Under the pieces are notes generated by a model, which did no database searches, was not told the origin of the DNA, and worked only from the letters and a program-made list of their open reading frames with translations. Shown piece by piece: positions 2,947-23,792 of a stretch of DNA of 32,000 bases; the stretch's first letter is position 1; every line of letters begins with the position of its first letter. The stretch lies in the NCBI RefSeq assembly GCF_019464535.1, contig NZ_CP080507.1, positions 3,900,001 through 3,932,000 of the forward strand, read 5' to 3'. Origin of the DNA: Horticoccus luteus. Lineage in GTDB: Bacteria; Verrucomicrobiota; Verrucomicrobiia; Opitutales; Opitutaceae. Both the position numbers and the translations under genes were made by a program.

Positions 2947-3156
2947 GGTGTAGTCAAACTTGCGCCGGGCACTGCACCCGGTGCTAGATTTCCGCCAGCG
3001 AAGACCGGGGGATTTACCGCGTCAAGCGTGCAACCGCCTCCCTTTGCACCCTTCCGGCGATCTCCGGGGCATCACACAGCTCCCGCGGCCGACCAGAACC
3101 GCGGCAAACTTCTTGCTCCCACGATGCTCCAGCCACGAGTGCCGGCGCCGAACGCC

Positions 3157-7500: not shown

Positions 7501-10385
7501 TCCACATCACTGCCGTCGCCGATCACGAGATTGCCTCCGACCGCGGTGGCGCCGCCAGATTTAGCGAGCACCAAGATACCGCCATTCACCGTCGTGGTGC
7601 CGCTGTAGGTATTAGCGTCACTGCCATTAAACGTAACGGTGCCCGTGCCGCTCTTGATGAACGAACCGCTCCCCGCAATAGTGCCGCCGTAGGTGGATGA
7701 TCCCGAGCTGACCCCGAGAGTCAAAGTGCCGCTTCCCAGTGTGATTTGCCCGGCAGTGCCGGAAATGACATTCAGGCTTTCGTTGAAACCATTGAGATCG
7801 AGGCGGCCGTCCGTATCGAAAGAGATAGAAGGCGCATAATCAGCAATCTGGTCATTCGCGGCCAAGCGGATGATGGCCGAACCTGCACCTCCCGCGCCGT
7901 CACCAATAGTGATCGCGCCTTGGCCGAGCGCATTCAGCGTCGCGGATTTTGCGAGCACGATCGTGCCGTCATTAAGTTTTGTCGCGCCGTAGGAGTTGGC
8001 GCCGGTCCCGGAGAGGGTGAGCGTGCCGCTGCCGTTTTTGATCAGGCTTCCCGTCGAGGTCAGTGACCCGCTGGTGGCAAAATCGCCGGCACCTTCGAAG
8101 GTGAGGTCTGAGCTCAAACTAAGATTGCCGAGCGTCAGCGTGCCGGCCGCGGAGCCGATGGTCGTGGCCCCAGCCAGGTTGAGCGTCGCGTTGAGGGTGT
8201 TGTTGCCGGAAAGATTGTAGATGGCTCCCACTGCACCGGCGCCGGTGCCCTGCACGCTGAAACTCCCCTCGTTGACGGTGATGCCGCCTTGAAGCGCCAG
8301 CGTCGCCCCATTGGCAATGACATTGCCCGAAGTTGAGCCGCCGAGCGCCGCGCTGTTTCCCAGGGTCAGGGTGCCGCCATCGACGTAGGTGAGACCGGTA
8401 AAAGTGTTGGTACCCGTCAGCGTGAGGTTGCCTGTGCCGGCCTTGTGAAAGGTGCCGTAGCTGTCGGTGATCGTGCCCGAAAACGTGGTGTCGGCGGCGG
8501 TCGACGTCGTGAAGTTGCTGCCGCGAATCGAGAGCGTGCCTGAGCCGGAAAGCGCCCCGACGGTTTCACTGTTGGCGCCCCAATCAAACTGGAACGTGCC
8601 CCCAGCGCCGATGATCAGGTCGGAAGCGTCCGCAATGCGGTTGCTGCCGGTGGTCTGAAGAATGCCGCCATTGATGGTCGTAGGTCCCGTGTAAGTATTC
8701 GTCCCGGTTAACAGCCACAGTCCGGCATCGTTTTTGATTAAAGACGTCGTGCCGGTGCCGGGATTGGCGATGATGGAGGCCAACGTATTATTGGCTGTGC
8801 TGGCGCCTCCGAGCGTCAACGTGCGATCTCCACTGCCGCTCATCGCCAGGCTGCCGGTGTTGGTAAAACTCAGCGCGCCGCTCCCCGCGGCTTCGATTGT
8901 CGCGCCGCCCGCGCCCACGGTGAAAAGCCGGTTGGTCGTATCGCTTGTGCCCGCATAGCGCAACGTCCCGCCATCGATCACGAGATTCCCCGCGGCGTTG
9001 GACGAAGCGCCGATGCTGGAATTCGATCCGCCGTTCGCGAGTTTCGAGACCTGCAGCACACCGCCGTCCACGGTCGTGACGCCGGTGTAGCTGCTGGCGG
9101 CGGACGTCAACGCCCACGTGCCGCCGTCGGTTTTCGTCAACGACGTCGCGCCCGTGTTGTTGCCGATGCTGGCCGCGAGGGTGTTGGTGTCCGTATTGGA
9201 ACCGCTGAGCGTAAAGGTGCGCGCATTGGTGCCCGCAAACGTGACGGCATTGGTGCTGTTAAATGTGATGGCGCCGGAGCCGGAAGCATCGAGTGCACCG
9301 CCGCTCGCTCCCAATGTAAACCGCCGGTTAGTCGCATCGCCGCCACCCGTATATTTCAAAGTGCCCCCGTTTATCACCAGATTGCCGGCAGCGTTGGTGG
9401 AATTTCCAATGCTCGATGCCGCGCCACCGGCGGCTAGTTTGCTGACCGAAAGCGTCCCGCCGTTAATAGTGGTCGCCCCGGTGTAAGTATTGGCGGCGTT
9501 GGTTAATACGAGCGTGCCGGCGCCAGTTTTGGTGAGCTTACGACTTCCGCTCGATTGGCTGACGACGCCGCCAATCGTGAGCGAGCTGCCGTTAATCGCG
9601 AAAGTGCGATTAGCCCCTCCAAGACTGAAGGCACCCGTGCCCAAATTGAGATCATTGGTCCCCGCAAAAGTGAGTGTGCCGCCCAGCGTGATCGAAGGAT
9701 TGTTGGTGAGCGTCACCGCGACGCCGCTTGTATTGTCGAGCGTGCCTCCATTGATGGCCATCGCACCCCCGCCATTCGCCGTGGCGCTGTTCAGGTTGAG
9801 CGTGCCGGCGCTTAAGGTCAGCGCGCCCGAAAACGTATTATTGCCCGCGAGCGTTAGCGCGCCATTGCCCGATTTGGTCAAGGTGCGGCCGGAAGCATTC
9901 TGACCGATGCTTTCATTGAAAGTCAGGCTGCCAGTTATGTTATAGGTCGAGTTGGCGGACAGCTGATACGAGCCGGCCCCATCGGAGATGGTGACATCGC
10001 CTTGGCTGACCGTTATGTTGGCCCCCGTTAAGGCTGTGACGGTGTTGAGGCTATAACTGCCGTTTCCCGCGTTGAATACTGCGGCGCTACCGTTGGTCCA
10101 TGCGCCCCAAGTGCCTGCGCCTGAAGAATTATTGTTCCACAACGAGGTCGAAGTATCCCAATTATAGCTCCCGGAGGCAGTGCCGAGACCACTGCCACTC
10201 GTCACGTCGAAATAAAGTTGCGCGCGCGCGCTCGTGGTGAGGCCGACCAAACCTGCGAATAACATCACCGACAGTAGAGCCTTCTGAATTTTCCCTCTCT
10301 CCTTCGCACAGACACGGGTGATCGTCTCAAAGCGACTCTTCGGCCGCGTGAGCGTTAACCCGTGGAGTAAACGAAATGGGACCAT
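4524..10385 (-). CDS. Giant secreted autotransporter-associated beta-strand repeat (PATR) protein with C-terminal PEP-CTERM sorting signal
   Basis: 1953-aa ORF with an ATG at 10383..10385. Signal-peptide-like KIQKALLSVMLFAGLVGLTTSARA/QLYFD. About 1850 aa of Gly/Thr/Asn/Ser-rich repeats of the type GxGTLxLxGxNTYTGxTTINGGTL, the PATR beta-helix pattern. The C-terminus PTPEPATYGVIFLGAGLALVTWRRVRQRRR has the PEP motif, a TM helix and an Arg cluster. There is no autotransporter barrel. The true start may be internal: an AAGGAG Shine-Dalgarno lies 9 nt upstream of codon Ile33 (ATT), and Met41 is another option. Confidence 0.9.
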   Translation of the reverse strand: MVPFRLLHGLTLTRPKSRFETITRVCAKERGKIQKALLSVMLFAGLVGLTTSARAQLYFDVTSGSGLGTASGSYNWDTSTSLWNNNSSGAGTWGAWTNGSAAVFNAGNGSYSLNTVTALTGANITVSQGDVTISDGAGSYQLSANSTYNITGSLTFNESIGQNASGRTLTKSGNGALTLAGNNTFSGALTLSAGTLNLNSATANGGGAMAINGGTLDNTSGVAVTLTNNPSITLGGTLTFAGTNDLNLGTGAFSLGGANRTFAINGSSLTIGGVVSQSSGSRKLTKTGAGTLVLTNAANTYTGATTINGGTLSVSKLAAGGAASSIGNSTNAAGNLVINGGTLKYTGGGDATNRRFTLGASGGALDASGSGAITFNSTNAVTFAGTNARTFTLSGSNTDTNTLAASIGNNTGATSLTKTDGGTWALTSAASSYTGVTTVDGGVLQVSKLANGGSNSSIGASSNAAGNLVIDGGTLRYAGTSDTTNRLFTVGAGGATIEAAGSGALSFTNTGSLAMSGSGDRTLTLGGASTANNTLASIIANPGTGTTSLIKNDAGLWLLTGTNTYTGPTTINGGILQTTGSNRIADASDLIIGAGGTFQFDWGANSETVGALSGSGTLSIRGSNFTTSTAADTTFSGTITDSYGTFHKAGTGNLTLTGTNTFTGLTYVDGGTLTLGNSAALGGSTSGNVIANGATLALQGGITVNEGSFSVQGTGAGAVGAIYNLSGNNTLNATLNLAGATTIGSAAGTLTLGNLSLSSDLTFEGAGDFATSGSLTSTGSLIKNGSGTLTLSGTGANSYGATKLNDGTIVLAKSATLNALGQGAITIGDGAGGAGSAIIRLAANDQIADYAPSISFDTDGRLDLNGFNESLNVISGTAGQITLGSGTLTLGVSSGSSTYGGTIAGSGSFIKSGTGTVTFNGSDANTYSGTTTVNGGILVLAKSGGATAVGGNLVIGDGSDVDTVRLDAANQIASTSAVTFTAGGTPTLNLNGFAQTLGSIASTNSSAVIAFGSPGGATDFTVGDATSTAYAGTFSSGNANGRLVKQGTGTLTLSGTSSGYSGPVLVNQGTLKVQSAGALGAGTAGTTVASGATLQLDSVLAPFNGTLTLSGTGVSGVGALYGTGGNNRWESNITLAGDATIGTNATGYLALGLTTTRYNRALSDPSGTPTDPTTLSLGANTLTLTGTTSAANHIATYINAQVTGTGNLVIAMTNATDTVRMTNNYNPTFTGTTQINNGILSLATLYNTYPADPAHPNFFAINGPVVIGDGTGAANSAQLTIQANTSILYDEMMNYTTPITLKSDGQFSLLAAQTIGALTFNGGNIDLGTTGSLFLNDDVTVNASAGHTATITGSGTSALSLTIHQGPVPVPNATRTFNLVGGAGNTSDLTIGALIYNGSIVKTGAGTMTITSDNHAGYEGTTTINNGTLAITNNSALGQSDGTDTSATLVNGNGTTNGTLQLSNNITVTNEKLTLNNTGYGNNGALRNLSGNNTWNGEVVVNDARTQSDAGLLTLNNTVTINTALEVTGSGNTTISGPVGGATGTLTKNGTGTLIVSGTNTYGGATTINTGVLSLQSNAGLGAATGGTTVSGSGGALELSNAAHGNLTTSAEPLALNGTGISGNGALRNAAGNNTFAGQVTLQSAALLTANTGTTLTLSGGVTSANQAATFGTTANNGNITITGNLTNGSGSLTKAGSGTLAINGTGTNTAGATHLNAGKISVASGATLNTGAFDSAVSTTLIIGSGGTVVSNYASGSTTFSGAIDGTGGGTFQKDGAGTLVFDHSFNAGTGSTLVLNGGTLSLASAANITFGTIHITADTVLDFNGTNGTVLSSANLIIDAGVHITVNNWKSTANQVTQSTVWYATSTVNSGTLSGADHLGNTPLNQITFTNYDGMTTTWVAGNHNGWFDHEIRPTPEPATYGVIFLGAGLALVTWRRVRQRRRAARSSASV
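4527..4640 (-). other. PEP-CTERM sorting domain (exosortase recognition signal) at the C-terminus of the giant protein
   Basis: Reverse complement of 4621..4640 reads cct acg cct gaa ccg = PTPEP. It is followed by the hydrophobic stretch ATYGVIFLGAGLALVTW and the basic tail RRVRQRRRAARSSASV. Confidence 0.8.
8736..9530 (-). repeat. Tandem ~132-aa intragenic duplication inside the PATR protein (aa 286-417 and 418-550)
   Basis: Unit 1 reads KTGAGTLVLTNAANTYTGATTINGGTLSVSKLAAGGAASSIGNSTNAAGNLVINGGTLKYTGGGDATNRRFTLGASGGALDASGSGAITFNSTN... Unit 2 reads KTDGGTWALTSAASSYTGVTTVDGGVLQVSKLANGGSNSSIGASSNAAGNLVIDGGTLRYAGTSDTTNRLFTVGAGGATIEAAGSGALSFTNTG... The two units are colinear over their whole length. 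Confidence 0.7.
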
Positions 10386-10820: not shown

Positions 10821-13682
10821 ATGAAACTATCCAGCGTGCGCAAGTTTTCATCCTTCAGACTCACCCTGCTCAGCGTCCTCGCATGCGCAGCATGGATACA
10901 AGCAACGCCTGTTGCACGGGCGCAGGATCCCGATCCTACGCCAGTCGTGGGCTACACGCCATCGATCGTTCAGATTCAAGATATGCTGCCGTTCACGCGG
11001 TCGTATACGTTCCAACTTACCTCGCCGTGGAATCATCTCGTCTCCACGCCCGTTCTCTTCGCCGTCACGCCGAACGGAAAGCCCAACGGCGTCACCGATG
11101 CCAAAGCTCTTTCTTACGTCACGGTCTCTCCCGCTCCCCTTGTTTTCACTTCTCCGAATCAGTCGCTGACGGTCACCGTCACCATGCAGTTGCCGGCTGA
11201 CGCCGTGGCCGGTTCTTATGGCTACAAGATCGTCGCAGTGGGTTGGCCGGAAGACCCCTTGCTCGGCTTGAGCAATGTCGGGACCTTCATCAACGCCACC
11301 GTCACCGCCGCAGCCCAGCCTCTCACCCCTCCGCAAGTTTCGATCGCCACGCCGGCGAACAACAGCACCGTGAGCGTCGATATCTCGCAGATGCCGGTCG
11401 CGGTTCCCTTTACGTTCACCGCCATCGGACCGGGCCCGAACCCCAGCCCGGTTGATAGCATCAGCTACGACGTCGACGGCGATGCCGGCTCGGTAACCAT
11501 CAACTCCCTTGCCACCCTGAACACCCTGAGCGTTACGGGCACCGGCAGTATCCTCGTCACGAATCCCGGTCAGCATGTCGTGACCGTGCGCGCCCACAAC
11601 GCCGCCGGCACCGCCACCGCCACCAACACCTTCACGGTTGTTACCACCGGTCAGGACCCGGCCACGCCTCCGGAGGTCGTCATCAATTCGCCCTACGACG
11701 AACAGCAATTCACCGTACCTTACGCGTCCCTCGATGCGCAGGGCCGCGCCAGCATCCCGCTGACGTTCACCGCCACCGCCTCACCGACGTATCCGATTCT
11801 ACATGTCGATGCCGATGTCGACGGCACGCCCGTCAACACCCTGGACAACCTCCGCAGTCCCACCGTGGAGTCCGGTGGCACGATGCTCGTCAAGGTCGGT
11901 TCCCACACGGTCACGGCGCACGCGAACAACTCTGTCGATAGCGCCCAGGACATGAACGACTTCACCGTTATCGTCACCGATGCCCCGCCGCCGGTCGTCG
12001 TGATCGACACCCCGGCCGATGGCACCGTCAAAACCTTCAACGTCGATGATGCGCCGTATATTGTGCCGCTGCACTACACCGCCAACAGTGTCGCCAAAGG
12101 AGGCGCGATTCGTGCCGTCCTCGCCTTCCTCGATGGCTCCGACACCCCGCTCGATGCGACCGTCACCGGTCTCGATACACCGACTGCCACAGGCGCCATC
12201 GATCTCTCGTTCACCGAGGCAGGTCAGCACACCGTGAGCGTTACCACGATGGACGACTACGGCAACGCGAGCGCCACCTCGACGTTCACCATCAATGTCG
12301 TGGATCCGCAACCCACGATTACGATCACCGCTCCGACTAATGGCACGGTCATCACTTTGGGCTGGGGCTGCAACTCGACCAACGTCGCCTTCAAATTCGT
12401 CAGCGGCACCAGCAATGGCTTCACCGTCGACACCGTCACCGGTCTCTTAAACGGCACGACGCCCGTCACGATTTCCACCAACTCCCCCGCCCTCGGCACC
12501 GCACAATCCGTCACGAGCACCGGCACCCTGTACGGTCTCACCGCAGGTTCCTACACCCTCACGGGCACGACCACGAGCTCCGGCAAATCCGCGACCGCGT
12601 CGATTTCCTTCACCATCCAAAGCCGCTACGTCGCCCCGCCGACCGTCGTCATTACAAGCCCCGCGCCGAACACGACGTTCTCGATGACCTCCGGTCAGTG
12701 CCTGAGCATCCCCCTCACCTTCACGGGCACCAGCAACTACAGCGGCGGATTGATCAACCAGCTCACCGCGAAGCTCGACGGCGTTGCCCTGACCGTCAGT
12801 CCCTCCTCCCCGAATCTCAAGGTCGCCAACGGCACTGCCACGATGGTGGTCAAGACCGCCGGCACACACACGATCGTCGTGACCGCCAAAGATGGGGTCG
12901 GCACCGCGACCGCCACCCAGACCTTTAACGTCGTCATCGTTTGCCCGAAGAAAATCACCGGCAACGTGTTTTACGACGTCAACGCCAACGGCAAAGTCGA
13001 TTGTCGCGAGTCCGGTCAGGCGAACGTCACCGTTAAGCTGACCAACGCCTCGAACCAAGTGATCGCGACGACCACGACGGACCGCTGCGGCAACTACACG
13101 TTCGCGAACGTCGCGCCCGGCACCTACACCGTCACGGCCGTTCCCACCAATGGCATGAAGCCGACGCCCTCCGGCGATTCCGGCAGCCGCAAAGTGACCG
13201 TTTCGACCAAGGATGTCTGCGCGCCCGTCATCGGCCTCGGGCTGAACTTCTCGTGTATCCGCACGATGAACGCCTACTGCAACACCCGCGATTACTGGCA
13301 ATGCAACGTGTCCAACGCCGTTTCCGGCCGCGACCGCAATTGCCAGATTCCTTCCAAGACGCTGAACAACTACACGAAGTGGATCGCGTGCGACGACACC
13401 CCGCACCGCAACATCTCGATGAAGACGGCGTGCTCCAACCTGGGCTCGCGCAGCTCGCAGTGCAAAGACGGCCTCTCCCAGGAATTGCTCGCCGCCAAAT
13501 ACAACTTCGCCAACGGCTGCTATTTGAACGGCGACAAGGATCTCACGGCCCGCTTCATCAGCTGGGGCGATGACACCTTGAACAACTGCAACAGCTACTC
13601 GAGCAGCTACGTTTCCAACTGCCGGGATTGGTTCTCGTCCTACAATAAATCACGCGGCTGCCTTAACGGCCCCTCGTCGTAA
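10821..13682 (+). CDS. Secreted multi-domain surface protein: signal peptide, N-terminal beta-sandwich, five tandem Ig-like repeats, SdrD/Cna-B-like domain, Cys-rich C-terminal domain
   Basis: The track ORF starts at GTG 10524. ATG 10821 instead gives MKLSSVRKFSSFRLTLLSVLACAAWIQATPVARA/QDP, a clean signal peptide. Five ~105-aa repeats each begin PPxVxIxxP and end TATATxTFxVV. KITGNVFYDVNANGKVDCRESGQANVTVKLTNASNQVIATTTTDRCGNYTFANVAPGTYTV matches the SdrD B-like/Cna-B pattern. The last ~155 aa contain 12 Cys. An intrinsic terminator follows the gene. Confidence 0.85.
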   Translation: MKLSSVRKFSSFRLTLLSVLACAAWIQATPVARAQDPDPTPVVGYTPSIVQIQDMLPFTRSYTFQLTSPWNHLVSTPVLFAVTPNGKPNGVTDAKALSYVTVSPAPLVFTSPNQSLTVTVTMQLPADAVAGSYGYKIVAVGWPEDPLLGLSNVGTFINATVTAAAQPLTPPQVSIATPANNSTVSVDISQMPVAVPFTFTAIGPGPNPSPVDSISYDVDGDAGSVTINSLATLNTLSVTGTGSILVTNPGQHVVTVRAHNAAGTATATNTFTVVTTGQDPATPPEVVINSPYDEQQFTVPYASLDAQGRASIPLTFTATASPTYPILHVDADVDGTPVNTLDNLRSPTVESGGTMLVKVGSHTVTAHANNSVDSAQDMNDFTVIVTDAPPPVVVIDTPADGTVKTFNVDDAPYIVPLHYTANSVAKGGAIRAVLAFLDGSDTPLDATVTGLDTPTATGAIDLSFTEAGQHTVSVTTMDDYGNASATSTFTINVVDPQPTITITAPTNGTVITLGWGCNSTNVAFKFVSGTSNGFTVDTVTGLLNGTTPVTISTNSPALGTAQSVTSTGTLYGLTAGSYTLTGTTTSSGKSATASISFTIQSRYVAPPTVVITSPAPNTTFSMTSGQCLSIPLTFTGTSNYSGGLINQLTAKLDGVALTVSPSSPNLKVANGTATMVVKTAGTHTIVVTAKDGVGTATATQTFNVVIVCPKKITGNVFYDVNANGKVDCRESGQANVTVKLTNASNQVIATTTTDRCGNYTFANVAPGTYTVTAVPTNGMKPTPSGDSGSRKVTVSTKDVCAPVIGLGLNFSCIRTMNAYCNTRDYWQCNVSNAVSGRDRNCQIPSKTLNNYTKWIACDDTPHRNISMKTACSNLGSRSSQCKDGLSQELLAAKYNFANGCYLNGDKDLTARFISWGDDTLNNCNSYSSSYVSNCRDWFSSYNKSRGCLNGPSS
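11325..12941 (+). repeat. Five tandem Ig-like domain repeats (about 105 aa each) within the secreted protein
   Basis: Repeat starts: TPPQVSIATP, TPPEVVINSP, PPPVVVIDTP, PQPTITITAP, PPTVVITSP. Repeat ends: GTATATNTFTVV, SAQDMNDFTVIV, NASATSTFTINV, SATASISFTIQ, GTATATQTFNVVIV. Each has an internal GxHTVTV/TA motif. Confidence 0.75.
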
Positions 13683-13706: not shown

Positions 13707-13735
13707 AAGGGCGGCCTTTCCGGCCGCCCTTTTTT
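13707..13735 (+). terminator. Rho-independent terminator downstream of the Ig-repeat protein gene
   Basis: aaGGGCGGCCtttccGGCCGCCCtttttt: a perfect 8-bp GC stem (13709..13716 with 13722..13729), a 5-nt loop and a T6 tract (13730..13735), 25 nt after the stop codon. It lies between convergent genes, so it may also stop the minus-strand operon, although the U-tract on that side is poor. Confidence 0.8.
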
Positions 13736-13838
13736 GCGTCCGCGAATCGCCTGCGACCGCGGCCTTCTTCCTTGCGCTCCTCCTCTGCAAATCGCGCAGT
13801 CGCCCGCCCGCTCTCTTCGCCTCTTTGTTTTTCGAGCC

Positions 13839-15341
13839 TTACCGGCGCTCGCTCGCCTGCTGCAACGCGTAGTATTTTTCCAACAGCGCGTAGTTGAGTT
13901 CCAGCGACATCGGCTGCACCAACGGCAGCATCGCTTGCACCGGCCAGTCGACCGCCCGTTGTCGCAGCAATTCCTCCACCCGGTTCAAACTCATCGGATT
14001 TGACCGTTTGGCGTCCACCAAGGCGGCTCTCAATTCCGGCAAATCCTCCTTCGCTCCCGCCAAAATCGCGGCAAAATACAGTGCCTCCGTGGCGTCATCG
14101 CGGCCCTCGGCGGGAGCGCGTGGCAAGCGGCGCCACGCCGTGATGCACAGCGTCAAAAGATCCGGGTCCGGGTAGGCAATGAGATGCAGCGCCAGCACCG
14201 TAACTCCCGTCGCTCCAGCGCCGCGTTCCGGCGCGACGAGCTGCTGGGCCTCCCGCTCCAACGCCGCTCGGTTGTGCCCTACCGCGTGCGCCGCCAGCAC
14301 CAACCGCAGCACGTCCCGTCCCTTCATCGTGTTCCGCAATTCTTCCAACAACGTCAGCGCCTCCGTTGGCGCACCAAGCTCAATCAAACGGTCGATCCGG
14401 TGAAAATTGGCGTAGGCGAAAGCACTCGGCGTGCTCCCGAAAAAGAGCAGATCGCGCGCCGCATCGGGCGGCATGCGTTGCGTGCGCGCCTCCAACGTCA
14501 ACACGCTTTTGACGGCGTCTGGGATCGGGTCCCGGGCCACATCGTCGAGCAGTTCCGGCTTCTCCAGCAGGCGCGACGCCACGATCAAGGCATGCGTCCA
14601 AGGCGAAGGGTCTCCGTCTTGTCGCGCGAGCTCCTGCCGCGCCAGTTTCGCCACGCCCATCAAGTCACCGCGAGCGAGCAGACTGCGCAGCCACACCTGC
14701 GTCGTCTCGTCGTGATGCTCCGGATGTGTTTGCACCAGATGCGCGTAAACTCCGTCAACGAGATCGGGCCGCCACGTCCAATAGAACTGAGCCACGATCA
14801 TCCCGATCGCGTAGCTGTCCGGATTCATTTCGTAGGCGGTCGTCAGCGACAGCGCCGCTTCCTGCGGGTGGCCTTGCGCCAGCAGTGTCTCTGCCTTCTC
14901 GACAAAATACTCCGCCCGCACCTGGCGTAATTCATGCCACGCTGGAGGCCAGAGAATCTGCCGCGGTGATGCGCGCAAACCCACGGCATGCGCGGCACCC
15001 CAGCCGGCCGTTCCGATCACGAGCACCACTCCCAGCGTCGCCCCGCCGTAGTAAACCGCCGCGCGGCCCCAGAAAGGTCGCACGCCGGCCGGGCTGACGC
15101 TGCACACCCACTCCCCGCGCTGATTGCGCGCCAGGAGCGGGCACACCCGGCGTTGAAACCGTTGCGGGTCATTCCAGAATGCCGCGCCTTCGCAGCCCGT
15201 CTCAAAGGGTCGGCCGGAATCCGACGGGTTGTGGCACGGGCATTGCCCCTTCCGGCCGCGCAGCACGAACACGCTCTTGCGCGCGTTCCAATACCAGAGC
15301 GCGCCTGCCGTGCGCGCCAAGTCGCCAAGCCACCCTTTCAT
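13839..15341 (-). CDS. Hypothetical single-pass membrane protein: cytoplasmic Cys-cluster N-terminus, one TM helix, ~380-aa TPR-like helical-repeat domain
   Basis: 500-aa ORF with an ATG at 15339..15341. The N-terminal 85 aa carry C34-x-C36-H37, C50, C67 and C80 (GQCPCHNPSDSGRPFETGCEGAAFWNDPQRFQRRVCPLLARNQRGEWVCSV). A hydrophobic helix AAVYYGGATLGVVLVIGTAGWGAA follows. The remainder is Leu/Ala-rich with helical hairpin-like periodicity (EKAETLLAQGHPQEAALSLTTAYEMNPDSY...). It is the last gene of the glycosyltransferase operon. Confidence 0.75.
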   Translation of the reverse strand: MKGWLGDLARTAGALWYWNARKSVFVLRGRKGQCPCHNPSDSGRPFETGCEGAAFWNDPQRFQRRVCPLLARNQRGEWVCSVSPAGVRPFWGRAAVYYGGATLGVVLVIGTAGWGAAHAVGLRASPRQILWPPAWHELRQVRAEYFVEKAETLLAQGHPQEAALSLTTAYEMNPDSYAIGMIVAQFYWTWRPDLVDGVYAHLVQTHPEHHDETTQVWLRSLLARGDLMGVAKLARQELARQDGDPSPWTHALIVASRLLEKPELLDDVARDPIPDAVKSVLTLEARTQRMPPDAARDLLFFGSTPSAFAYANFHRIDRLIELGAPTEALTLLEELRNTMKGRDVLRLVLAAHAVGHNRAALEREAQQLVAPERGAGATGVTVLALHLIAYPDPDLLTLCITAWRRLPRAPAEGRDDATEALYFAAILAGAKEDLPELRAALVDAKRSNPMSLNRVEELLRQRAVDWPVQAMLPLVQPMSLELNYALLEKYYALQQASERR

Positions 15342-15414
15342 GCCTCAAGCAAGCGCGACCGGCTTGCACGACGCAACGCCGGAGCGTTTCCCTCCCGCAA
15401 CAATCAAGGCCTCC

Positions 15415-16881
15415 TCAATGCCACTTCAATTTGCGCAGGCCGAACCACGTCATTTTCAGCAGCACCCAGCCATGCCGGAAACGCGAGATGTTCGTCTCGC
15501 CGTAGGTGCGATCACGGTAACGCACCGGAATATCGCGGATGCGCAAACCCAGCAGGGCCGAGCCGAAGAGGAAGTTGAAATCGCCAAACGGATCGAAGTC
15601 CCCAAACGGAGCGATGCGGCGACACAGCTTCTCGTAATCCGCGCGCAACATCATCTTGGTGCCGCACAGACTGTCCTTCACCGGCTGCCCGAGCACATAA
15701 CTCAGCGTGAGCGCAAAAAACTTATTCCCCAACAGATTCAGGAAACGCATGGCCTTCTCCTCCCGCGGATAGACCAGCCGGCTGCCATTCGCGAACTCTG
15801 CCCGACCCGACGCCACCGCCGCATAAAACTTCGCCAGGTCTTCCGGCGGCGCGGTGAGGTCGGCATCCTGAATCACCAGCACATCGCCTTGCGCCACCGC
15901 GAGGCCCGTGCGCACCGCATCCCATTTCCCTCTCCCCGGTTGCTGCATCATGCGCACGTGATGCGGTCCATGATACGCAGCGACCTCCCGCTGAATGGCG
16001 GCCCAGGTGTCGTCGCGGCTGTTGCCTTCCACAAAAATAATCTCCGTGCCCCGACCGAGCACCGGGATCCGCGCCAGCGCCGCTGCAATGTTGCCGGATT
16101 CGTTTCGCGCCGGCACCACCACCGAACATGACACCGCGCCGCGCAACTCCGGCGCCCGCCGCGGACGCGCCGTGATCATCAGCGTGATCCCGAAATGCCG
16201 CACAAGCGGCAGACGCACCAGGAAGCGATTGAAAAACGCCGAGAGCAGCGGGACTTGAAACGGCAGCAGTTGCACGCGCTCGAAGCTCACCACTTCCCAA
16301 TCCGCGAGTTCGAGCAGGTTGAACAAATCGGAGTGCGTGAGCCAGTTGCTGGGCGGCTGGCGCATCACCGCCTTCGCCCCCACCGCGAGTCTGAGCGGCC
16401 CGCGCCAGAGCGTATTCAGCGAAGTGACATGCAGCCGCGTGCGGGCGTGCGCCGAGGCTTGGAGATGTTGCAGCACCGCCTGGATGTCGCCCACGTAACC
16501 GGTCAGATAATCGAGCACGATATGGTCGAATGTCTCCGCGATCGGACCGGCCTCGATATCGTGCTCCTGAAATGTCAGCGCCGGTGCCTCCGCGTGCCGC
16601 GCCCGCGCCTTTGCCACCATCGCCGCGCTGAAATCGACGCCCACGCCCCGCGCCGGGCGCAGTGCCGCCAGCAAGTCGCCCGCCCCGCAGCCACACTCCA
16701 GCACACGCTCACCTTCCGGGATACGATGGCGAAACAAAGCCCGGAGCTGCGCGTGAAACCCGCCTTGGATCCGCCGCGCCCGTGCGTCGTGGGTGGCGAC
16801 CCAGTCGAAATGCGCGCGCATGGGCGACGTGGCCGGGGAAGCGGTTTCTGTTACGGAAGACATGGCGAGCGGCGGACTCAA
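15415..16881 (-). CDS. Bifunctional class I SAM-dependent methyltransferase / family 2 glycosyltransferase (Dpm1/ArnC-like polyprenyl-phosphate glycosyltransferase)
   Basis: 488 aa. The TTG start (16879..16881) overlaps the upstream TGA stop. The N-terminal half has SAM motif I VLECGCGAGDLL. The C-terminal half has VVVPARNESGNI, EIIFVEGNSRDDT, the DxD-type VIQDADLTAPPEDL, and IRDIPVRYRDRTYGETNIS, typical of Dpm1/ArnC/GtrB-type GT2 enzymes. Confidence 0.85.
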   Translation of the reverse strand: MSPPLAMSSVTETASPATSPMRAHFDWVATHDARARRIQGGFHAQLRALFRHRIPEGERVLECGCGAGDLLAALRPARGVGVDFSAAMVAKARARHAEAPALTFQEHDIEAGPIAETFDHIVLDYLTGYVGDIQAVLQHLQASAHARTRLHVTSLNTLWRGPLRLAVGAKAVMRQPPSNWLTHSDLFNLLELADWEVVSFERVQLLPFQVPLLSAFFNRFLVRLPLVRHFGITLMITARPRRAPELRGAVSCSVVVPARNESGNIAAALARIPVLGRGTEIIFVEGNSRDDTWAAIQREVAAYHGPHHVRMMQQPGRGKWDAVRTGLAVAQGDVLVIQDADLTAPPEDLAKFYAAVASGRAEFANGSRLVYPREEKAMRFLNLLGNKFFALTLSYVLGQPVKDSLCGTKMMLRADYEKLCRRIAPFGDFDPFGDFNFLFGSALLGLRIRDIPVRYRDRTYGETNISRFRHGWVLLKMTWFGLRKLKWH

Positions 16882-18698
16882 GACGACCCCGCCCCCTTGG
16901 TCGAGACCGCCGACGGAGGTTTCGGCGCGGGGTCAATCGCGACGAGTCGGCTGACGCGGTCGATTTTGGTGCCAAACCGCTTTTCGGCGAGCAACTGCAG
17001 CTTGAAGCTTTCCGGCAGCAGCTCTTCCGGCACCAACTGATGATCGCCGTTCGCCGAAGCGGGGCGCAGTGACTGAATCACCAGTATTTCGTGAAACCTC
17101 GGCCGCTGTAACTGGTAATGCAGCCGATCCGCCACCAACTTGGCTCGATCGATCATGATCGCCGGACGTTCCTCGAGCAGCCAAGGCAACGAAGACTTGT
17201 TCGTGATGATCAACCGCTCTCCTGCCGGCAGGCTGCGCACCAGACGCCGCTCCCACTCGATCTCATCGATCCCCAAGTGTGAGTAATAGTGAAACGCGTA
17301 GCGCGTCGTCGTCACCCCGAGCACGAAACACGCAGCCGCGCCGCACAACCACGTCAGCGCCCGTCCGCGACGTTCGATTCCCGCCACCAGCAACACCGCG
17401 GCAAATGCCAGCAGCAGATTAAGCGGCAGGCTGAAGCGCGACGCCATCCGGTCCGCGAAACTCGACCAGTAATAGCAAAAGACCAGCACCGTGTTGCCCA
17501 CGATCGCCGCGGAAAAGCATAACAACGCCCATTGCGCCCCGCTCCACGGCTGCCCTCCGCGCCGCCGCCGCGAGGCGCGCCATGCCAACCAGACCATCCC
17601 CAATCCACCCAGGACGGACAGCAGGAGCGAGTTCGCGAGTTCCGGACTCGTGTTAAAGAGAAACTTTGCCGCACTGATCGCGTTGTCCTGCAGATAACTC
17701 AGGCTGAACCGCGTCGTGGTTTCCTCCTTCAGCTCCCACAACAGCGGCGAATTCGAGAGCACCTTGTTTTGCAGCGCGCACGGAATGAGCAACAGCGGCG
17801 CCACAATCGCCGCCCACGGCAGAATCACCCGCTGCGCCCGCCACCAACCGAGCAGCACCACGACCGCCACCGGCGCGGCATAAAGAGCCGATTCGTAGCG
17901 CGACTGCGCCAGCAGCACCGCCGTCAACGCCAGCGCCGCCACCGCTTCTTCCGACGGCCGCGCGAGGTAAGCGCCCGCGATCGCGAGCGTCGCCAGGATC
18001 ATCACCACATTCAACAACTCCATTCCCGAGCCCGTCGCGTTCTGCCCCAGCAGCGGCAGTCCGCCCAGCAACAGCACCGCCAGCAATCCGCCGCGCCAAC
18101 CCGTCAGTTGACGCCCCACCACAAAGGCCAGCAGGAGCGCGAGCGGCAGCAGCAGCGAGTTGACGACATAGGCATTCAGCGGCCGATAGCCCGTGAGATC
18201 ATGCGCCAGCGACACGACGAACGGGTAAAAATATGGCCGTTTATCGAGGTAGTTGTTGGTCGAGATGAAAACTCCTTCCACCTCGTAGCCCCGCACCATC
18301 GTCGCGACTTCGCGAAAAAAATGCATGTTGAACGCCGTCGATTGCAGCACGAACTCGTCGTTGAGAATTTTGCTGCGATACGGCTCCGCGTTGATCGCGA
18401 GCAGCGAGAGCCCCGCGATCGTGCCCGCCACCAGCCAGCGTTGCCGCCCCGTCAACCCCTCCCGCACCGCGGAACGGCGCCGCCACCAACGCCACAAGAC
18501 CGCGCCGCAGAGCACGAAGGTCACGAACATCACGTAATAGCCTCCGCGCTTTACGACCGCCTCCGCCGTCATCACCGACAACCCGAGAAACCCCAGATAC
18601 ACCGCGCCAACACCCGCGAGCCCGAAACACGCCAGCCGCACGTCCGCTCGCGCAAGCAAGCGCCGAAGCGATGAGACTGCAGCAGCCGGCTCTGTCAC
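16878..18698 (-). CDS. Polytopic GT-C fold glycosyltransferase (PMT_2/ArnT-like, GT39/GT83-type), paralogue B
   Basis: 606 aa. The GTG start (18696..18698) overlaps the upstream stop, forming GTGA. There are about 11-13 hydrophobic segments and an acidic loop-1 motif KILNDEF. Motifs shared with the neighbouring paralogue are LDKRP, HDLTGYRP, LPLLGQNATGSG, SRYES and GWWR. A soluble C-terminal domain of ~150 aa follows. Confidence 0.8.
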   Translation of the reverse strand: MTEPAAAVSSLRRLLARADVRLACFGLAGVGAVYLGFLGLSVMTAEAVVKRGGYYVMFVTFVLCGAVLWRWWRRRSAVREGLTGRQRWLVAGTIAGLSLLAINAEPYRSKILNDEFVLQSTAFNMHFFREVATMVRGYEVEGVFISTNNYLDKRPYFYPFVVSLAHDLTGYRPLNAYVVNSLLLPLALLLAFVVGRQLTGWRGGLLAVLLLGGLPLLGQNATGSGMELLNVVMILATLAIAGAYLARPSEEAVAALALTAVLLAQSRYESALYAAPVAVVVLLGWWRAQRVILPWAAIVAPLLLIPCALQNKVLSNSPLLWELKEETTTRFSLSYLQDNAISAAKFLFNTSPELANSLLLSVLGGLGMVWLAWRASRRRRGGQPWSGAQWALLCFSAAIVGNTVLVFCYYWSSFADRMASRFSLPLNLLLAFAAVLLVAGIERRGRALTWLCGAAACFVLGVTTTRYAFHYYSHLGIDEIEWERRLVRSLPAGERLIITNKSSLPWLLEERPAIMIDRAKLVADRLHYQLQRPRFHEILVIQSLRPASANGDHQLVPEELLPESFKLQLLAEKRFGTKIDRVSRLVAIDPAPKPPSAVSTKGAGSS

Positions 18699-20551
18699 GG
18701 CAGTTCTTGGATGAAATGCTCGAAATACGCCTGCCGCACTTTCTCGCGTTCTTCGCGCGAAAGTTTTTCGAGCGGCACCGGCTTTTCAGTCGGCGGCGTC
18801 GTCGGGCCGCCGTCGATCGCCGTGACTCGGCTGATCCGACTCAACCGCATCGGCGAAAACTGCCGCTCCTGCACCGTGGCCAGATGGTAGTCCGGCCCGA
18901 TGTCGTCATCCTTCTGCACGGTCAGTGCCCCCGTCTTCGGATCCACGTCGAAGCGCTGGAAAACATAGATGTTGGAAAAGGTGCGATTTTGAAAATTGAA
19001 GATGAGCAGATCCTTGTGCTCCAGCGCCTGCAGCACGGGCGTGCTGGAAACCAGATGCGTGATCCAGATGATCGAGTTCGCATCGATCACGAGATAGTCG
19101 CGCTCCGGGTGCGCCGCGATGAATTCCCGCCGCCACGCCGTCTCGCGGCCCACGTAGTATTCCAACGAATAAGCGTGCCGCGCCATGGCGGGCAGCGAGG
19201 AGAAAAACATGCCCGCCACGACCACCCCGATGAGCACTCTCCACGCCACCGCGCGGCGGGCGAGTTCCGCCACCACGACAATCACCGCCAGCGCGAGAAA
19301 CAGATTCTCCGGCAGGCTGAGGCGCCGGATCACCGGATCGTCGAACTTGCCCCAAAAATAGACCATCATCAGCGCGCCGTGGAGCAGAAAGCCCACCGCC
19401 ATCCACGCAAAGGCCACGCTCACGGCCGGATTGGCCCCGGGCCGGCGCAGGATTTTCACCAACCAGAGCAACAGGAAAGGCAGCGCCAGAAATCCGAGCA
19501 CCGAAAGCACCAGCGAATTGCCTTGGTTGGCGCTCGGATCGAAGAAGAAATTAAGCGCGTGCTGGATGTTGTCCGGCACGTAGCGCAGCGCGAACGGTTT
19601 CGCCGCACCCGGCTGCCCCGCCAGCTCCCACGCGGAGTCGCGCGCCGAAAACACGCGGTTGTGCCACGCCACCGGCAGCAGCAGAAGCGGCGTCGCCCAC
19701 ACCGCCCACGTGAACTGCAGCCGGCGTTGACGCCACCAACCGCACGCGATCACCGCGGCGATCGGCAGCAGAAACAGCACCGATTCGTAACGCGTCAACG
19801 CCAGCAACACCGCCGCGAGGCACAACGCGTTCAACGAATCATCGTCGAGCCGCTCCGCGTAGCGCAGCGCCAGCGCCACATTCACCAGAATCATCACCAA
19901 GTTCAAAATCTCGAACCCACCGCCCGTGGCGTTTTGCGAGAGCAACGGCAGACTGGTGAGCAACAACACCGCCGCCGCGCCCGCGCCCATCCCCCCGAGT
20001 CGTCGGCCGACATGAAACACGAGCCCAAGCAGCGTGAACGTCAGCAGCACATTGAGCACAAATGCATTCTCCGGCCGATAACCCGTGAAATCGTGCAGCA
20101 GCGACAGCAGAAACGGATGAAACAGCGGACGCTTGTCGAGTTGTCCGCTCAAGAGTTGAAACGCCCCCTGGATGTCGTGCCCGCGCGTGGGGACGAGCGC
20201 CGTCTTGTCGAAGTGCAGGCTCATCGACGTGCCGAGCAACATCACCTCGTCCATGAGAATCTTGAAGCCAAAGCTCTCTTGCACGAGCAGCACGAGACCG
20301 CACCCGAGCACCAGGACCGCCGGCCACTTTCTCGCCCCGCGCAGCTCCCGCCAGCGCTCCGCTGCAGGGCGCAGCACCCGCCACAGCGCCCACCCAAACA
20401 ACACCGTGATGAGCAACAAGGCCCAATAGCCGCCGTAGATCACGAGCTGCATACTCTGATCCGGCGTGAACGTCAGAAAACCCAGCACCAGCGCGAGCGC
20501 AGCCGTGCCGGACAAAAGCCACAAGGAGCGGTGGCGAAGAAGCGAATTCAT
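18695..20551 (-). CDS. Polytopic GT-C fold glycosyltransferase (PMT_2/ArnT-like), paralogue A
   Basis: 618 aa with an ATG at 20549..20551. It is multi-TM with the acidic loop motif KILMDEV. It aligns colinearly with paralogue B through LDKRP, HDFTGYRP, LPLLSQNATGGG, TRYES and GWWR. The soluble C-terminal domain ends in EKLSREEREKVRQAYFEHFIQELP. Confidence 0.8.
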   Translation of the reverse strand: MNSLLRHRSLWLLSGTAALALVLGFLTFTPDQSMQLVIYGGYWALLLITVLFGWALWRVLRPAAERWRELRGARKWPAVLVLGCGLVLLVQESFGFKILMDEVMLLGTSMSLHFDKTALVPTRGHDIQGAFQLLSGQLDKRPLFHPFLLSLLHDFTGYRPENAFVLNVLLTFTLLGLVFHVGRRLGGMGAGAAAVLLLTSLPLLSQNATGGGFEILNLVMILVNVALALRYAERLDDDSLNALCLAAVLLALTRYESVLFLLPIAAVIACGWWRQRRLQFTWAVWATPLLLLPVAWHNRVFSARDSAWELAGQPGAAKPFALRYVPDNIQHALNFFFDPSANQGNSLVLSVLGFLALPFLLLWLVKILRRPGANPAVSVAFAWMAVGFLLHGALMMVYFWGKFDDPVIRRLSLPENLFLALAVIVVVAELARRAVAWRVLIGVVVAGMFFSSLPAMARHAYSLEYYVGRETAWRREFIAAHPERDYLVIDANSIIWITHLVSSTPVLQALEHKDLLIFNFQNRTFSNIYVFQRFDVDPKTGALTVQKDDDIGPDYHLATVQERQFSPMRLSRISRVTAIDGGPTTPPTEKPVPLEKLSREEREKVRQAYFEHFIQELP

Positions 20552-20594
20552 CTGGATGACCCGACGAACGCACGCGAACCGCGACGCGTTGTCG

Positions 20595-20625
20595 AAAAAA
20601 AAGCCGTTCGCGGTCGGCGAACGGC
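20595..20625 (-). terminator. Rho-independent terminator downstream of the pseudopilin gene
   Basis: On the minus strand, GCCGTTCGC-cgacc-GCGAACGGC is followed by T8. On the plus strand this is the A8 run at 20595..20602 and the stems at 20603..20611 and 20617..20625. It lies 26 nt after the pilin stop codon. Confidence 0.8.
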
Positions 20626-20650
20626 TTCGTAAATCAAACCGACCGATTTC

Positions 20651-20995
20651 TTACGGGGCGTAAGTGACGGTGCGCTGGCCGGCCACACCCGAGATCGTGA
20701 TGGTCACGCCTTGCGTATAGTTCGCCGGATACGACTCGCTGGCCACCGTGTTGACGGCCTTCACGTATTTGTCCGAACCCACGAGGTCGCTCAACGCCGC
20801 CGTCGAGACACCGTTCTCGAGGAAGTATTGGTCCGCCGCGCCAGAGAGCTGACGGGCATTGTTCAAGACGGCTTTGTCTTGCGAGGACTGGCGAACCTTT
20901 TGGAACGCCGGAATCGCCATGGCGGCCAAGAGGCCGATGATGACGACAACGATCATGATTTCAACGAGGGTGAAGCCCCGATTACCTTTGTTCAT
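20651..20995 (-). CDS. Prepilin-type N-terminal cleavage/methylation domain protein (type II secretion pseudopilin / type IV pilin-like)
   Basis: 114 aa with an ATG start. The N-terminus is MNKGNRG/FTLVEIMIVVVIIGLLAAMAIPAFQKVR: the classic G/F cleavage site with Glu+5, a hydrophobic helix and the AIPAF motif. Confidence 0.9.
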   Translation of the reverse strand: MNKGNRGFTLVEIMIVVVIIGLLAAMAIPAFQKVRQSSQDKAVLNNARQLSGAADQYFLENGVSTAALSDLVGSDKYVKAVNTVASESYPANYTQGVTITISGVAGQRTVTYAP

Positions 20996-21317
20996 AGTGC
21001 TGGGATGATATTATTTATGATATGCGATGCTCAAACGCGAGCAGTGGGCGCTGACATAGCGACATAAGTTCCGACCGGGCAAGGTCAAAACCTTGCTAAT
21101 AATCCTCGCGCCGCCCGCCTTCCCCGCGGCTTGCCCACACCCCGCGGGGAAATTTTCCGCTCTTTTTTCGATCGAGTCTTGCCAACGCCCGGTGACTTTC
21201 TCCCTGTAAGTTTTCGCTGGCCGGAGAACGCGCCGCGGACGCCGTCGCTCATTTTAATCTGGAGAAATTCGGGTGGAGCTTGCGCCCGGGCACGCGCTCG
21301 GCGGCGGCGAGTCTCCT

Positions 21318-22358
21318 ATGAAGCAATCTTTCGACTTTTTCCACCTCGGGCGCGCGCTTTTCTTTCTGCTGCTCGCCGCTGTTCCGCTGCGCGCCGCGGA
21401 ATTGAAACTCGCCAACGGCGACCGCATCACCGGCACGCTGATCAGCCGCGACCGCGGTAAAATCCACTTCTATTCGCCTTTGCTCGGCGACCTCGTCGTC
21501 AGCGAAAAACAAGCGATGGTCGTGGCCGACGACGACAAAGCGGTGGAAGCGCTCGCCGGACTTCCGCCCATTCCCGCCAAACCCGCCGTGAGTTCCGCCA
21601 GCAGTCCCGAGGCCGCCCCGCCGACCGCCGACACCGTGCCCGCGGCCACGGAGACGACCTCTCCGAAATGGAAAGGCAAAATCGAATTCGGCTTCGCCAA
21701 TCAGCAGGGCCGCGCCAACGCCAACAACATCTCGTTGCGTGCCGATGCCGAACACACCGACGGCCCGGACAATCTTCGCCTCTCCGGACGTTACCTCTAC
21801 GGAAAGAGCGAAACGACGGTCACCTCCGACCGCCAGGACGCCAGCTTCCGGTGGCGGCACGAACTCTCCGAAACGATGTTCGGCCAGACCGTCTCCAGCT
21901 ACTCCTCCGACACCATCAAAGGCATCGACTACGACCTCGAGCAAAACGCCGGCATCGGTTACAAGTTCCTCCGCCGTCCCCGCCACACGGCCTCCGTCGG
22001 CGCGGGCGTGACGTTGCAATATCGCGCGGCGACCGATCTCGAACAGAGCCTCGCCTACCTCGGCGAGCTGTTTCAGGATTACACTTACAAAATCAATGGC
22101 CACTTCACGCTGTTGCAGGAAGCAGGCGCACTTTACGCCCCGGAGTCGCGTGGCATCGCCACCTATTCCGGCAACAAATTGATCTCCGAGACCGACACCC
22201 GCAGCTATAAACTGCACTTCAACACCACGTTGCAGGGCAAGTTCAACGAGCGGATCTCGCTCAACATCCGTTACGAATACGAATACGATTCGACGATCGC
22301 CGATCTCACCGCTCGCGCCGACCAGCGCATCACGAGCTCGATCGGCTACGCTTTTTAG
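21318..22358 (+). CDS. DUF481 (YdiY-like) outer-membrane beta-barrel protein
   Basis: Starting at ATG 21318 gives MKQSFDFFHLGRALFFLLLAAVPLRA/AELKLANGD, a signal peptide. The body shows alternating beta-strand patterns (KGKIEFGFANQQGRANANNISLRADAEH, LSGRYLYGKS, ISLNIRYEYEYDS). The protein ends in the OMP-type terminal IGYAF. An alternative start is GTG 21273, which has a GGAG 8 nt upstream and is the start used by the ORF track. Confidence 0.85.
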   Translation: MKQSFDFFHLGRALFFLLLAAVPLRAAELKLANGDRITGTLISRDRGKIHFYSPLLGDLVVSEKQAMVVADDDKAVEALAGLPPIPAKPAVSSASSPEAAPPTADTVPAATETTSPKWKGKIEFGFANQQGRANANNISLRADAEHTDGPDNLRLSGRYLYGKSETTVTSDRQDASFRWRHELSETMFGQTVSSYSSDTIKGIDYDLEQNAGIGYKFLRRPRHTASVGAGVTLQYRAATDLEQSLAYLGELFQDYTYKINGHFTLLQEAGALYAPESRGIATYSGNKLISETDTRSYKLHFNTTLQGKFNERISLNIRYEYEYDSTIADLTARADQRITSSIGYAF

Positions 22359-23706: not shown

Positions 23707-23792
23707 GCCCGGGTGATGGAATGGTAGACATTGGGGACTTAAAATCCCCTGCTCGTAAGAGCGTGCGGGTTCGAGTCCCGCCCCGGGCACCA
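23707..23792 (+). tRNA. tRNA-Leu (anticodon UAA), CCA encoded
   Basis: Folded by hand. The acceptor stem GCCCGGG pairs with CCCGGGC. The D stem is ATG/CAT with a GG-containing loop. The anticodon stem GGGGA/TCCCC carries the loop CTTAAAA (anticodon TAA). The long variable arm is GCTC-gtaa-GAGC (class II). The T stem GCGGG/CCCGC carries the loop TTCGAGT. The discriminator is A, followed by CCA. Confidence 0.95.

Follow-up and report, generated by a model that had tools for sequence, protein, structure and literature searches.

The DNA analysed was a 32,000-nucleotide stretch from Horticoccus luteus (Opitutaceae, Verrucomicrobiota), referred to below as the window. It contains four minus-strand genes, designated GT-C A, GT-C B, the fusion and gene 4 (genes 1 to 4), which a first-pass annotation had read as one split PMT/TMTC-like glycosylation system. 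The four open reading frames (ORFs) were recovered where that annotation had placed them (618, 606, 488 and 500 amino acids, aa). They are tightly packed over 13839-20551 whichever start codons are chosen, and no further genes were present within that interval. The genes and two features upstream of them are listed below in window coordinates.

20651..20995, minus strand: short prepilin-type pilin (114 aa; WP_220161868.1) with a G^FTLVE cleavage motif; N_methyl PF07963 and TIGR02532 above their cut-offs.
20592..20628, minus strand: strong intrinsic terminator or attenuator (12-bp stem, 5-nt loop, T8 run).
18695..20551, minus strand: GT-C A, a predicted GT-C-fold membrane glycosyltransferase (618 aa); PMT_2 at 25.9 bits, AlphaFold2 (AF2) model, Foldseek.
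16878..18698, minus strand: GT-C B, a paralogue of GT-C A by identity (606 aa from GTG 18698; annotated as 593 aa from TTG 18659).
15415..16881, minus strand: the fusion, a class I S-adenosylmethionine (SAM) methyltransferase joined to a Dpm1/ArnC/GtrB-type family 2 glycosyltransferase (GT2) (468-488 aa by start); Pfam and PDB profile matches.
13839..15341, minus strand: gene 4 (500 aa), with an N-terminal helix, a Cys4 mini-domain, one transmembrane helix (residues ~94-122) and a TPR-like solenoid; AF2 model and alignment.

The overlaps claimed at two gene boundaries, GTGA at 18695-18698 and TTGA at 16878-16881, are present as letters in the DNA but presuppose that the longest ORFs are used. 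In the public annotation GT-C B starts at TTG 18659 (593 aa), leaving a 35-nt gap after GT-C A, and the fusion starts at ATG 16863 (482 aa), leaving a 14-nt gap after GT-C B. For the fusion, the Logan gene call has ATG 16821 (468 aa) instead, the start in best agreement with the N-termini of orthologues. A 4-nt overlap of GT-C A and GT-C B is present in the gene calls of three related contigs.

Terminators had been described on both sides of the block. The upstream one is a real, strong hairpin in the stretch that runs from the pilin stop (20651) to the GT-C A start (20551); the downstream one belongs to a convergent gene for an Ig-repeat protein, ending at 13682, and is described with that gene below. 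Of 86 related loci, 84 had a GC-rich hairpin and T-run behind the final pilin copy. Stem sequences vary among these loci, which suggests that the structure of the hairpin between pilin and GT-C A has been selected. Because only about 40 nt separate the terminator from the GT-C A ATG, and a consensus scan of this interval found no sigma-70-like site, it is more plausibly an attenuator separating the GT-C genes from the pilin than the edge of an operon. GC content is uniform (0.59-0.68) over the window, and the idea that the block had been acquired horizontally was rejected on those grounds.

Conservation was assessed by scanning GTDB species genomes with an alignment of GT-C A. This gave 80 Opitutaceae loci at 49-66% identity, onto which the window proteins were mapped. 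Counts are given as loci with the feature over assessable loci. A pilin orthologue (1-3 copies, 68-87% identity) lay directly before GT-C A in 67/67 loci, and GT-C B directly after it in 62/66. RsfS was found upstream of GT-C A in 54/56 loci. The fusion directly followed GT-C B in 13/58, and gene 4 was found anywhere in the locus in 0/53.

A second scan, of metagenomes and anchored on the fusion, gave 80 loci at 62-76% identity, 39 of them with at least 4 kb of upstream sequence. A same-strand member of the GT-C family was located within 2.8 kb upstream of the fusion in 22 of these 39; with one further locus (L127, at 3.4 kb) the count is 23/39. Fusion-linked GT-Cs extended down to 25-33% identity to GT-C A (L138, L140, L142, L146, L148, L167 and L169), and conservation of the fusion was much stronger than that of the adjoining GT-Cs. 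The order A then B was kept wherever identity to GT-C A was at least 38%. More distant lineages had one GT-C, or two poorly differentiated ones. Broad GT-C alignments (A1, A3) were also tried as locus queries and held no stretch conserved enough; metagenome contigs scanned with a distant GT-C subfamily (A4) yielded nothing. The GT-C genes and the fusion form a recurrent, deeply conserved and separable association. A lack of co-conservation had been named beforehand as one result that would refute the four-gene proposal; judged in this way the set of four failed, and the set of three survived.

Genes downstream of GT-C B were recorded in the related loci. In other Opitutaceae this region is a variable island (L001 13659-16114 and L020 13586-15064; also L057, L066, L025, L043 and L044). 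It contains multipass paralogues of ~400 aa (43/58 loci), PMT/PMT_2 proteins of ~500 aa and of 680-760 aa, and class I methyltransferases of 241-253 aa. None of the island genes is present in the H. luteus window. The ~400-aa multipass proteins (memX/memY) had no Pfam, NCBIfam or PDB match and no homologue in the window. They were considered as diverged members of the GT-C family and rejected (hhalign probability 1%, no PDB match). Distant loci repeatedly have additional stand-alone methyltransferase genes in the stretch from the GT-Cs to the fusion. In L127 (2803-5418), the gene for an 871-aa Wzy_C protein separates a pilin-linked GT-C from a methyltransferase and the fusion; the Wzy_C domain is the one found in PglL/TfpO pilin O-oligosaccharyltransferases. 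The variable downstream gene set resembles surface-glycan diversification loci. In the Lacunisphaera locus (L001, 16111-21842, opposite strand) the module is adjoined by genes for PMT_2, a DegT-type aminotransferase, a GT2, a hexapeptide acyltransferase, a GFO/IDH oxidoreductase and PMT, a cluster that seems to encode an Arn-like system for amino-sugar modification, distinct from the module. Two loci of low-GC, marine type (L151 and L155, 9450-11390, minus strand) have a stand-alone fusion convergent with a 646-aa multipass protein without Pfam or NCBIfam match, which may be another glycosyltransferase partner.

GT-C A matches an H. luteus protein at 100% identity, is annotated publicly as a glycosyltransferase family 39 protein, and is 37% identical to GT-C B over 572 residues. 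Both score below the gathering cut-off (26.1 bits) of PMT_2 (PF13231), at 25.9 bits for A and 21.5 bits for B. Some orthologues carry a precomputed PF13231 match, and the family lies at the edge of this model. Pfam searches at E <= 0.1 gave no match to PF02366 (PMT), MIR or PMT_4TMC in either protein, and no TPR. NCBIfam has no family for A or B. phmmer, run against 1.84 billion cluster representatives, gave 1437 members of the GT-C A family (50%-identity clusters), 587 of them at E <= 1e-30. Most are ~600 aa long and were matched over their full length.

In a 44-sequence alignment, near-invariant residues (GT-C A numbering) were K97, D101, E102, H113, D139-K-R-P142, H153-D154, G157-Y158 and R254-Y-E256. 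GT-C B keeps every family-invariant residue (D114, E115, D152-KRP, H166-D167, R267-Y-E269), and both proteins look catalytically competent as judged from these residues. The loop motifs first reported for the pair are correct, being KILMDEV in A (K97-V103) and KILNDEF in B (K110-F116), and their Asp-Glu (D101-E102 in A, D114-E115 in B) is kept in 43/44 family members. The Asp-Glu loop follows the third hydrophobic segment, past a positively charged loop, and by the positive-inside rule is predicted to be periplasmic.

The AF2 model of GT-C A had a pLDDT of 93.1 and a pTM of 0.93. When it was searched against the PDB with Foldseek, the top 37 matches were all GT-C enzymes (ArnT, ALG12/9/3, STT3, PglB, AglB, Emb, AftA/D, Pmt, PimE). 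ArnT (5f15) ranked first, with TM-scores of 0.44/0.49; Pmt4 ranked 20th, and Pmt1/Pmt2 35th to 37th. A profile of the family found no sequence relative in the PDB, ArnT included. The GT-C fold and conserved acidic loop claimed at the outset were borne out by model, structural matches and alignment. The label "split PMT/TMTC-like" was abandoned in view of the missing PF02366 and MIR, the PMT_2 scores below cut-off and the lack of a TPR fusion. GT-C A and B were concluded to represent a distinct GT-C family that is not PMT and not demonstrably ArnT. A-type proteins have a nearly invariant "...LP" end after an amphipathic helix (residues 599-615; window 18695-18760). In the GT-C A model this C-terminal helix is attached via a low-confidence linker, and B-type proteins have no such tail.

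The fusion has an N-terminal methyltransferase and a C-terminal GT2 domain. Pfam matches were Glycos_transf_2 (PF00535, 5e-21) and Methyltransf_31/25/23/12/11. The SAM motif VLECGCGAGD and the DXD motif D339-A-D341 were invariant in 12 fusion orthologues. Searched against the PDB, the fusion profile matched dolichyl-phosphate mannose synthase (DPMS) of P. furiosus (5mlz, E = 2.4e-16), followed by ArnC (three sequences) and GtrB sll0501. These matches upheld the assignment of gene 3 to the Dpm1/ArnC/GtrB type. Scores against NCBIfam were all below cut-off (AglJ 78.6 vs 325 bits, dolichyl-phosphate hexose transferase 58.1 vs 375, ArnC 36.1 vs 529), and there was no equivalog-level NCBIfam match to any named enzyme. 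On sequence comparison, the closest characterised relatives of the GT2 domain are polyprenyl-phosphate sugar synthases (DPMS, ArnC, GtrB and haloarchaeal AglJ). A Kyte-Doolittle scan found no hydrophobic segment or transmembrane helix in the fusion, which ends in an amphipathic helix. Human DPM1 likewise has no transmembrane helix, and the fusion resembles it in this respect.

In the H. luteus window the pilin gene is directly upstream of GT-C A. Over the related loci, the first GT-C was immediately preceded by a pilin ORF in 86 of 91, and in 2 more by tblastn only. The N-terminal 60 residues of the pilin are nearly invariant among loci, and Ser/Thr are conserved at positions 64, 65, 83, 88, 94, 98, 100, 109 and 111. 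Adjacency of pilin and GT-C was kept in loci that have lost or reshuffled the NadD-RsfS arrangement (L146, L148, L167, L169, L140 and L084). The upstream context there was an FGE-sulfatase-like gene plus PIN-TRAM (L146/L167), VWA (L084) or another gene (L140).

Gene 4 had been described as a Cys-cluster/helical-repeat membrane protein, and four invariant Cys, one transmembrane helix and an alpha-solenoid were indeed found. The cysteines (C36, C50, C67, C80) lie in a mini-domain (residues 30-90) before the transmembrane helix, with a conserved CPCHNPSDSG. This mini-domain may bind a metal; it had no family match. Pfam TPR scores were all below cut-off, the best being TPR_19 (20.6 vs 25 bits). 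The AF2 model (pLDDT 89.5) had 22 helices forming an alpha-solenoid of 370 residues, and Foldseek returned generic TPR proteins only, at TM-scores of at most 0.35 and with no functional lead. There were 219 homologues, and those with a taxon name were almost all Opitutae-like. The features around gene 4 are as follows.

15342..15414, no strand: 73-nt gap, putative synteny breakpoint (comparison of gene 4 neighbourhoods).
13707..13741, plus strand: terminator of the convergent Ig-repeat gene, with its T-run on the plus strand only.
10821..13682, plus strand: exported protein with Ig/PKD/SdrD_B repeats by Pfam (953 aa, from the Met preceding a signal-peptide-like stretch).
4524..10385, minus strand: PATR-repeat giant (1953 aa); PATR 2.3e-52, PEP-CTERM borderline at 20.6 against a cut-off of 20.7.

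Read on the minus strand, the hairpin at 13707-13731 has an A-run in front of it and GGAAGG behind. The gap of 73 nt ahead of gene 4 was confirmed to have no U-tract, and held a weak 6-bp hairpin only. The four-gene row was reproduced only in two Horticoccus-like contigs (L087 and L088; 79% GT-C A identity). In Oleiharenicola, Didemnitutus and a third metagenome-assembled genome (L002, L003 and L089), gene 4 occupied a row running PEPCK ... SSF transporter, gene 4, Ig-like, PATR. Ig-repeat homologues were convergent to gene 4 in L087, L088 and L089, and PATR genes adjoined gene 4 homologues in L002, L003 and L089. Since gene 4 adjoins the GT-C block only in the Horticoccus-like contigs and has the Ig/PATR genes beside it elsewhere, the simplest reading of the gap would be a rearrangement junction, joining a NadD-RsfS-pilin-GT-C block to a gene 4/Ig/PATR block. 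Gene 4 would then be a neighbour, outside the conserved module, and its proposed role as a subunit was dropped in light of this distribution. A role for gene 4 as a tether for the GT2 (compare DPM3 for DPM1) was rejected as a general mechanism, as gene 4 occurs in few lineages and is not co-located. In a distant lineage (L142, 4809-6641), the gene directly after the fusion encodes a membrane protein of 610 aa that matches TPR at its C-terminus and may be a fused GT-C-TPR enzyme.

Other genes flanking the block encode PATR and PEP-CTERM giants, prepilin-type proteins, a GH123 hydrolase, RsfS and NadD, and fit an Opitutaceae verrucomicrobium. A DUF481 gene (21273-22358, plus strand) is divergent from the pilin gene, and is located between RsfS and the pilin in some related loci. 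Three ORFs (326, 430 and 420 aa) at 247-4419, upstream of the PATR giant gene, had no Pfam match. Rfam found no regulatory RNA in the block; the sole Rfam/ARAGORN match in the window was a tRNA-Leu (anticodon UAA) at 23707-23792 (plus strand).

The logic of donor synthesis followed by periplasmic transfer, which the first-pass annotation had proposed, is sound, given that the trio of GT-C A, GT-C B and fusion is met again in distant lineages, and we regard it as likely. By homology, the GT2 of the fusion would make a polyprenyl-phosphate sugar, possibly methylated. Judging by the fusion itself and the recurrent methyltransferase genes, the fused SAM methyltransferase would probably act on the sugar or a precursor of it. 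The lipid-linked sugar would be flipped to the periplasm by a flippase. There, GT-C A and B would use the lipid-linked donor through the loop Asp-Glu, acting either as a heteromer (compare Pmt1-Pmt2 and EmbA-EmbB) or as two site- or linkage-specific transferases. The acceptor would be the conserved pilin, modified on its conserved Ser/Thr as in pilA-tfpW of Pseudomonas aeruginosa.

The functional unit is tentatively taken to be the pilin, the attenuating terminator, GT-C A, GT-C B and the fusion, with the pilin as the favoured acceptor. Among the acceptors originally suggested, the pseudopilin was retained, being consistently placed directly upstream of the GT-Cs, and the PATR and Ig proteins were set aside, since they travel with gene 4. 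Taken by itself, the pilin as acceptor is our best current guess, and a cautious one. A fuller version is speculative and, taken whole, doubtful: a heteromeric pair of GT-Cs of the new family would place a methylated sugar on the unusually conserved 107-residue mature pilin, a methyltransferase-Dpm1 fusion without membrane anchor would supply this sugar on polyprenyl phosphate, and a hypervariable downstream island of GT-C and methyltransferase genes would diversify the pilus glycan from species to species, for example against phage, in an undescribed system widespread in Opitutaceae and related Verrucomicrobiota.

Several observations weigh against this reading. The evidence for the acceptor is entirely that of gene order, and inherited NadD-RsfS synteny is a real confounder of the pilin/GT-C adjacency, the housekeeping genes NadD and RsfS being nearly as constant upstream of the GT-Cs as the pilin within Opitutaceae (54/56 loci). 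Three loci with adequate sequence had no pilin. Two of these (L085/L086) have a lone GT-C family member, and the third (L126) has GT-C, GT-C and fusion, preceded by 3.2 kb that contain no pilin gene. The terminator at 20628-20592 could equally well divide the pilin and the GT-C genes into distinct transcription units. There was no fusion at the locus in 45/58 Opitutaceae genomes, and in 16/39 metagenome loci the fusion stood alone among unrelated genes (gluconolactonase and penicillin amidase, or ArgRS and an ECF sigma factor). No GtrA/ArnEF-like flippase gene was seen in the block or among the Pfam-identified neighbours in the window, and the GT2 of the fusion has no membrane anchor. The closest solved fold is that of ArnT, a lipid A transferase.

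The last point leads to the main rival explanation. Here each GT-C would add a lipid-linked sugar at a different position of lipid A, lipopolysaccharide core or another envelope glycan, and the pilin would be a mere syntenic neighbour. RgtA/RgtB act in this way on Kdo in Rhizobium, and ArnT on lipid A (PMC4402001). This explanation is considered unlikely. PMT_2 is the only Pfam family approached, and ArnT is the best solved fold match; that match is weak (TM-scores 0.44-0.49), ahead of oligosaccharyltransferase, PglB and Pmt4 by E-value and similar to them in TM-score. The terminator that parts the pilin from the GT-C genes, the absence of pilin in L126 and L085, and the Arn-like cluster (PMT_2, aminotransferase, GT2, acyltransferase) abutting the Lacunisphaera module would all suit it. 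Conservation of NadD-RsfS synteny to about the same degree also means that adjacency here need not reflect function; against this, the adjacency of pilin and GT-C outlasts the rearrangements that remove NadD-RsfS. A further point against this rival is that no Arn or Rgt sugar-nucleotide genes were present in the window.

General PMT-like O-glycosylation is a less probable rival. Many exported Ser/Thr-rich proteins (PATR, Ig and PEP-CTERM adhesins) would be modified, the pilin being one target among them. The loop-1 Asp-Glu is like that of PMTs, the paralogue pair recalls Pmt1-Pmt2, Thr/Ser-rich giants are encoded close by in the window, and Opitutaceae loci have many further PMT/PMT_2 genes. 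Set against these likenesses are the missing PF02366 match and MIR domain, and the fact that the adhesin genes go with gene 4 and not with the GT-Cs: they are absent from the other 80 loci, and their link to the GT-Cs is proximity in one genus only. A four-gene model is very improbable. In it, gene 4 would serve a split TMTC-like enzyme as the TPR subunit for recognising acceptors, alongside GT-C A, GT-C B and the fusion. In its favour, gene 4 is predicted to be a membrane-anchored TPR-like solenoid, is encoded on the same strand, and in H. luteus follows the fusion after 73 nt without an intervening terminator (50 nt in two related contigs); L142 also has its C-terminal-TPR membrane protein directly after the fusion. 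Against it, gene 4 is absent from all 53 assessable Opitutaceae loci, has only 219 homologues where GT-C A has more than 1000, and in three other genera sits in the PEPCK ... SSF, Ig-like, PATR context whose Ig/PATR genes also flank it in the window.

A literature search found no description of such a glycosylation system in Verrucomicrobia, and to our knowledge protein glycosylation and pili are essentially unstudied in Verrucomicrobiota. If the pilin-directed reading is true, the locus would provide a second, independent pilin-dedicated GT-C after TfpW, in another phylum and with another donor pathway. It would also define a GT-C family (~1400 clusters at 50% identity) that is barely detected by Pfam/NCBIfam and has no solved sequence relative, and would give a function to the "SAM-dependent methyltransferase / glycosyltransferase" fusion, which is very common. 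In annotation terms, a real three-gene module is told apart from a fourth gene that apparently adjoins it through lineage-specific rearrangement.

The locus was compared with known systems. As in the eukaryotic TMTC enzymes (GT-C-TPR), the H. luteus gene row combines a GT-C with a TPR-like protein; unlike in TMTC, they are unfused and not co-conserved (0/53). The eukaryotic and actinobacterial PMTs (GT39) with Dpm1/Ppm1 share with the present genes a Dpm1-like donor synthase, the loop-1 Asp-Glu and a paralogue pair (compare Pmt1-Pmt2). They differ in that GT-C A and B have no PF02366 or MIR and match the PMT fold only distantly, and in that the present family has two extra N-terminal transmembrane helices and its own C-terminal alpha/beta domain. 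Unlike ArnT, A and B have no NCBIfam match and no PDB sequence match, and there are no arn-type genes in the window. Haloferax AglJ and dolichyl-phosphate hexose synthases gave the best NCBIfam matches of the GT2 domain. AglP carries out SAM-dependent methylation of a lipid-linked glycan, a precedent for methylating a sugar on its lipid carrier. The fusion differs from AglJ/AglP in scoring far below the equivalog cut-offs, in being bacterial and in having its methyltransferase fused rather than separate.

Three-component systems combine a GT2, a flippase and a GT-C, and include pentofuranose systems (PMC11127046). As in GtrA/GtrB/Gtr* and ArnC/ArnEF/ArnT, a GT2 polyprenyl-phosphate sugar synthase would here be paired with a GT-C acting on the flipped, lipid-linked monosaccharide. 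Unlike in those systems, the block has no flippase gene, its GT2 carries a fused methyltransferase and its GT-C is present as two copies. GtrB, ArnC and archaeal DPMS have C-terminal transmembrane helices, and the fusion GT2 has none. Three-component systems are linked to O-antigen or lipid A loci, whereas the genes here are linked to a pilin gene.

The nearest parallel in gene order is TfpW, a GT-C enzyme that arabinosylates the group IV pilin of P. aeruginosa from a lipid-linked D-arabinofuranose donor (bioRxiv 10.1101/2020.04.19.049825). As in pilA-tfpW, a GT-C gene is located immediately downstream of a pilin gene, both in the window and in 67/67 loci. In pilA-tfpW a polyprenyl-phosphate-linked monosaccharide is made in the cytoplasm and transferred in the periplasm to pilin Ser/Thr, and the same scheme is proposed here. 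Unlike in the TfpW system, no TfpX or GtrA-like partner was seen and no DprE-like gene lies in the window. There are two paralogous GT-Cs instead of one, the donor synthase would be a Dpm1-type GT2-methyltransferase fusion in place of the phosphoribosyl pyrophosphate/DprE1/DprE2 pathway, and the pilin is a candidate acceptor. Judged from predicted functions, the locus is probably a form of lipid-linked periplasmic glycosylation, directed at a pilin and using a GT-C family not previously described.

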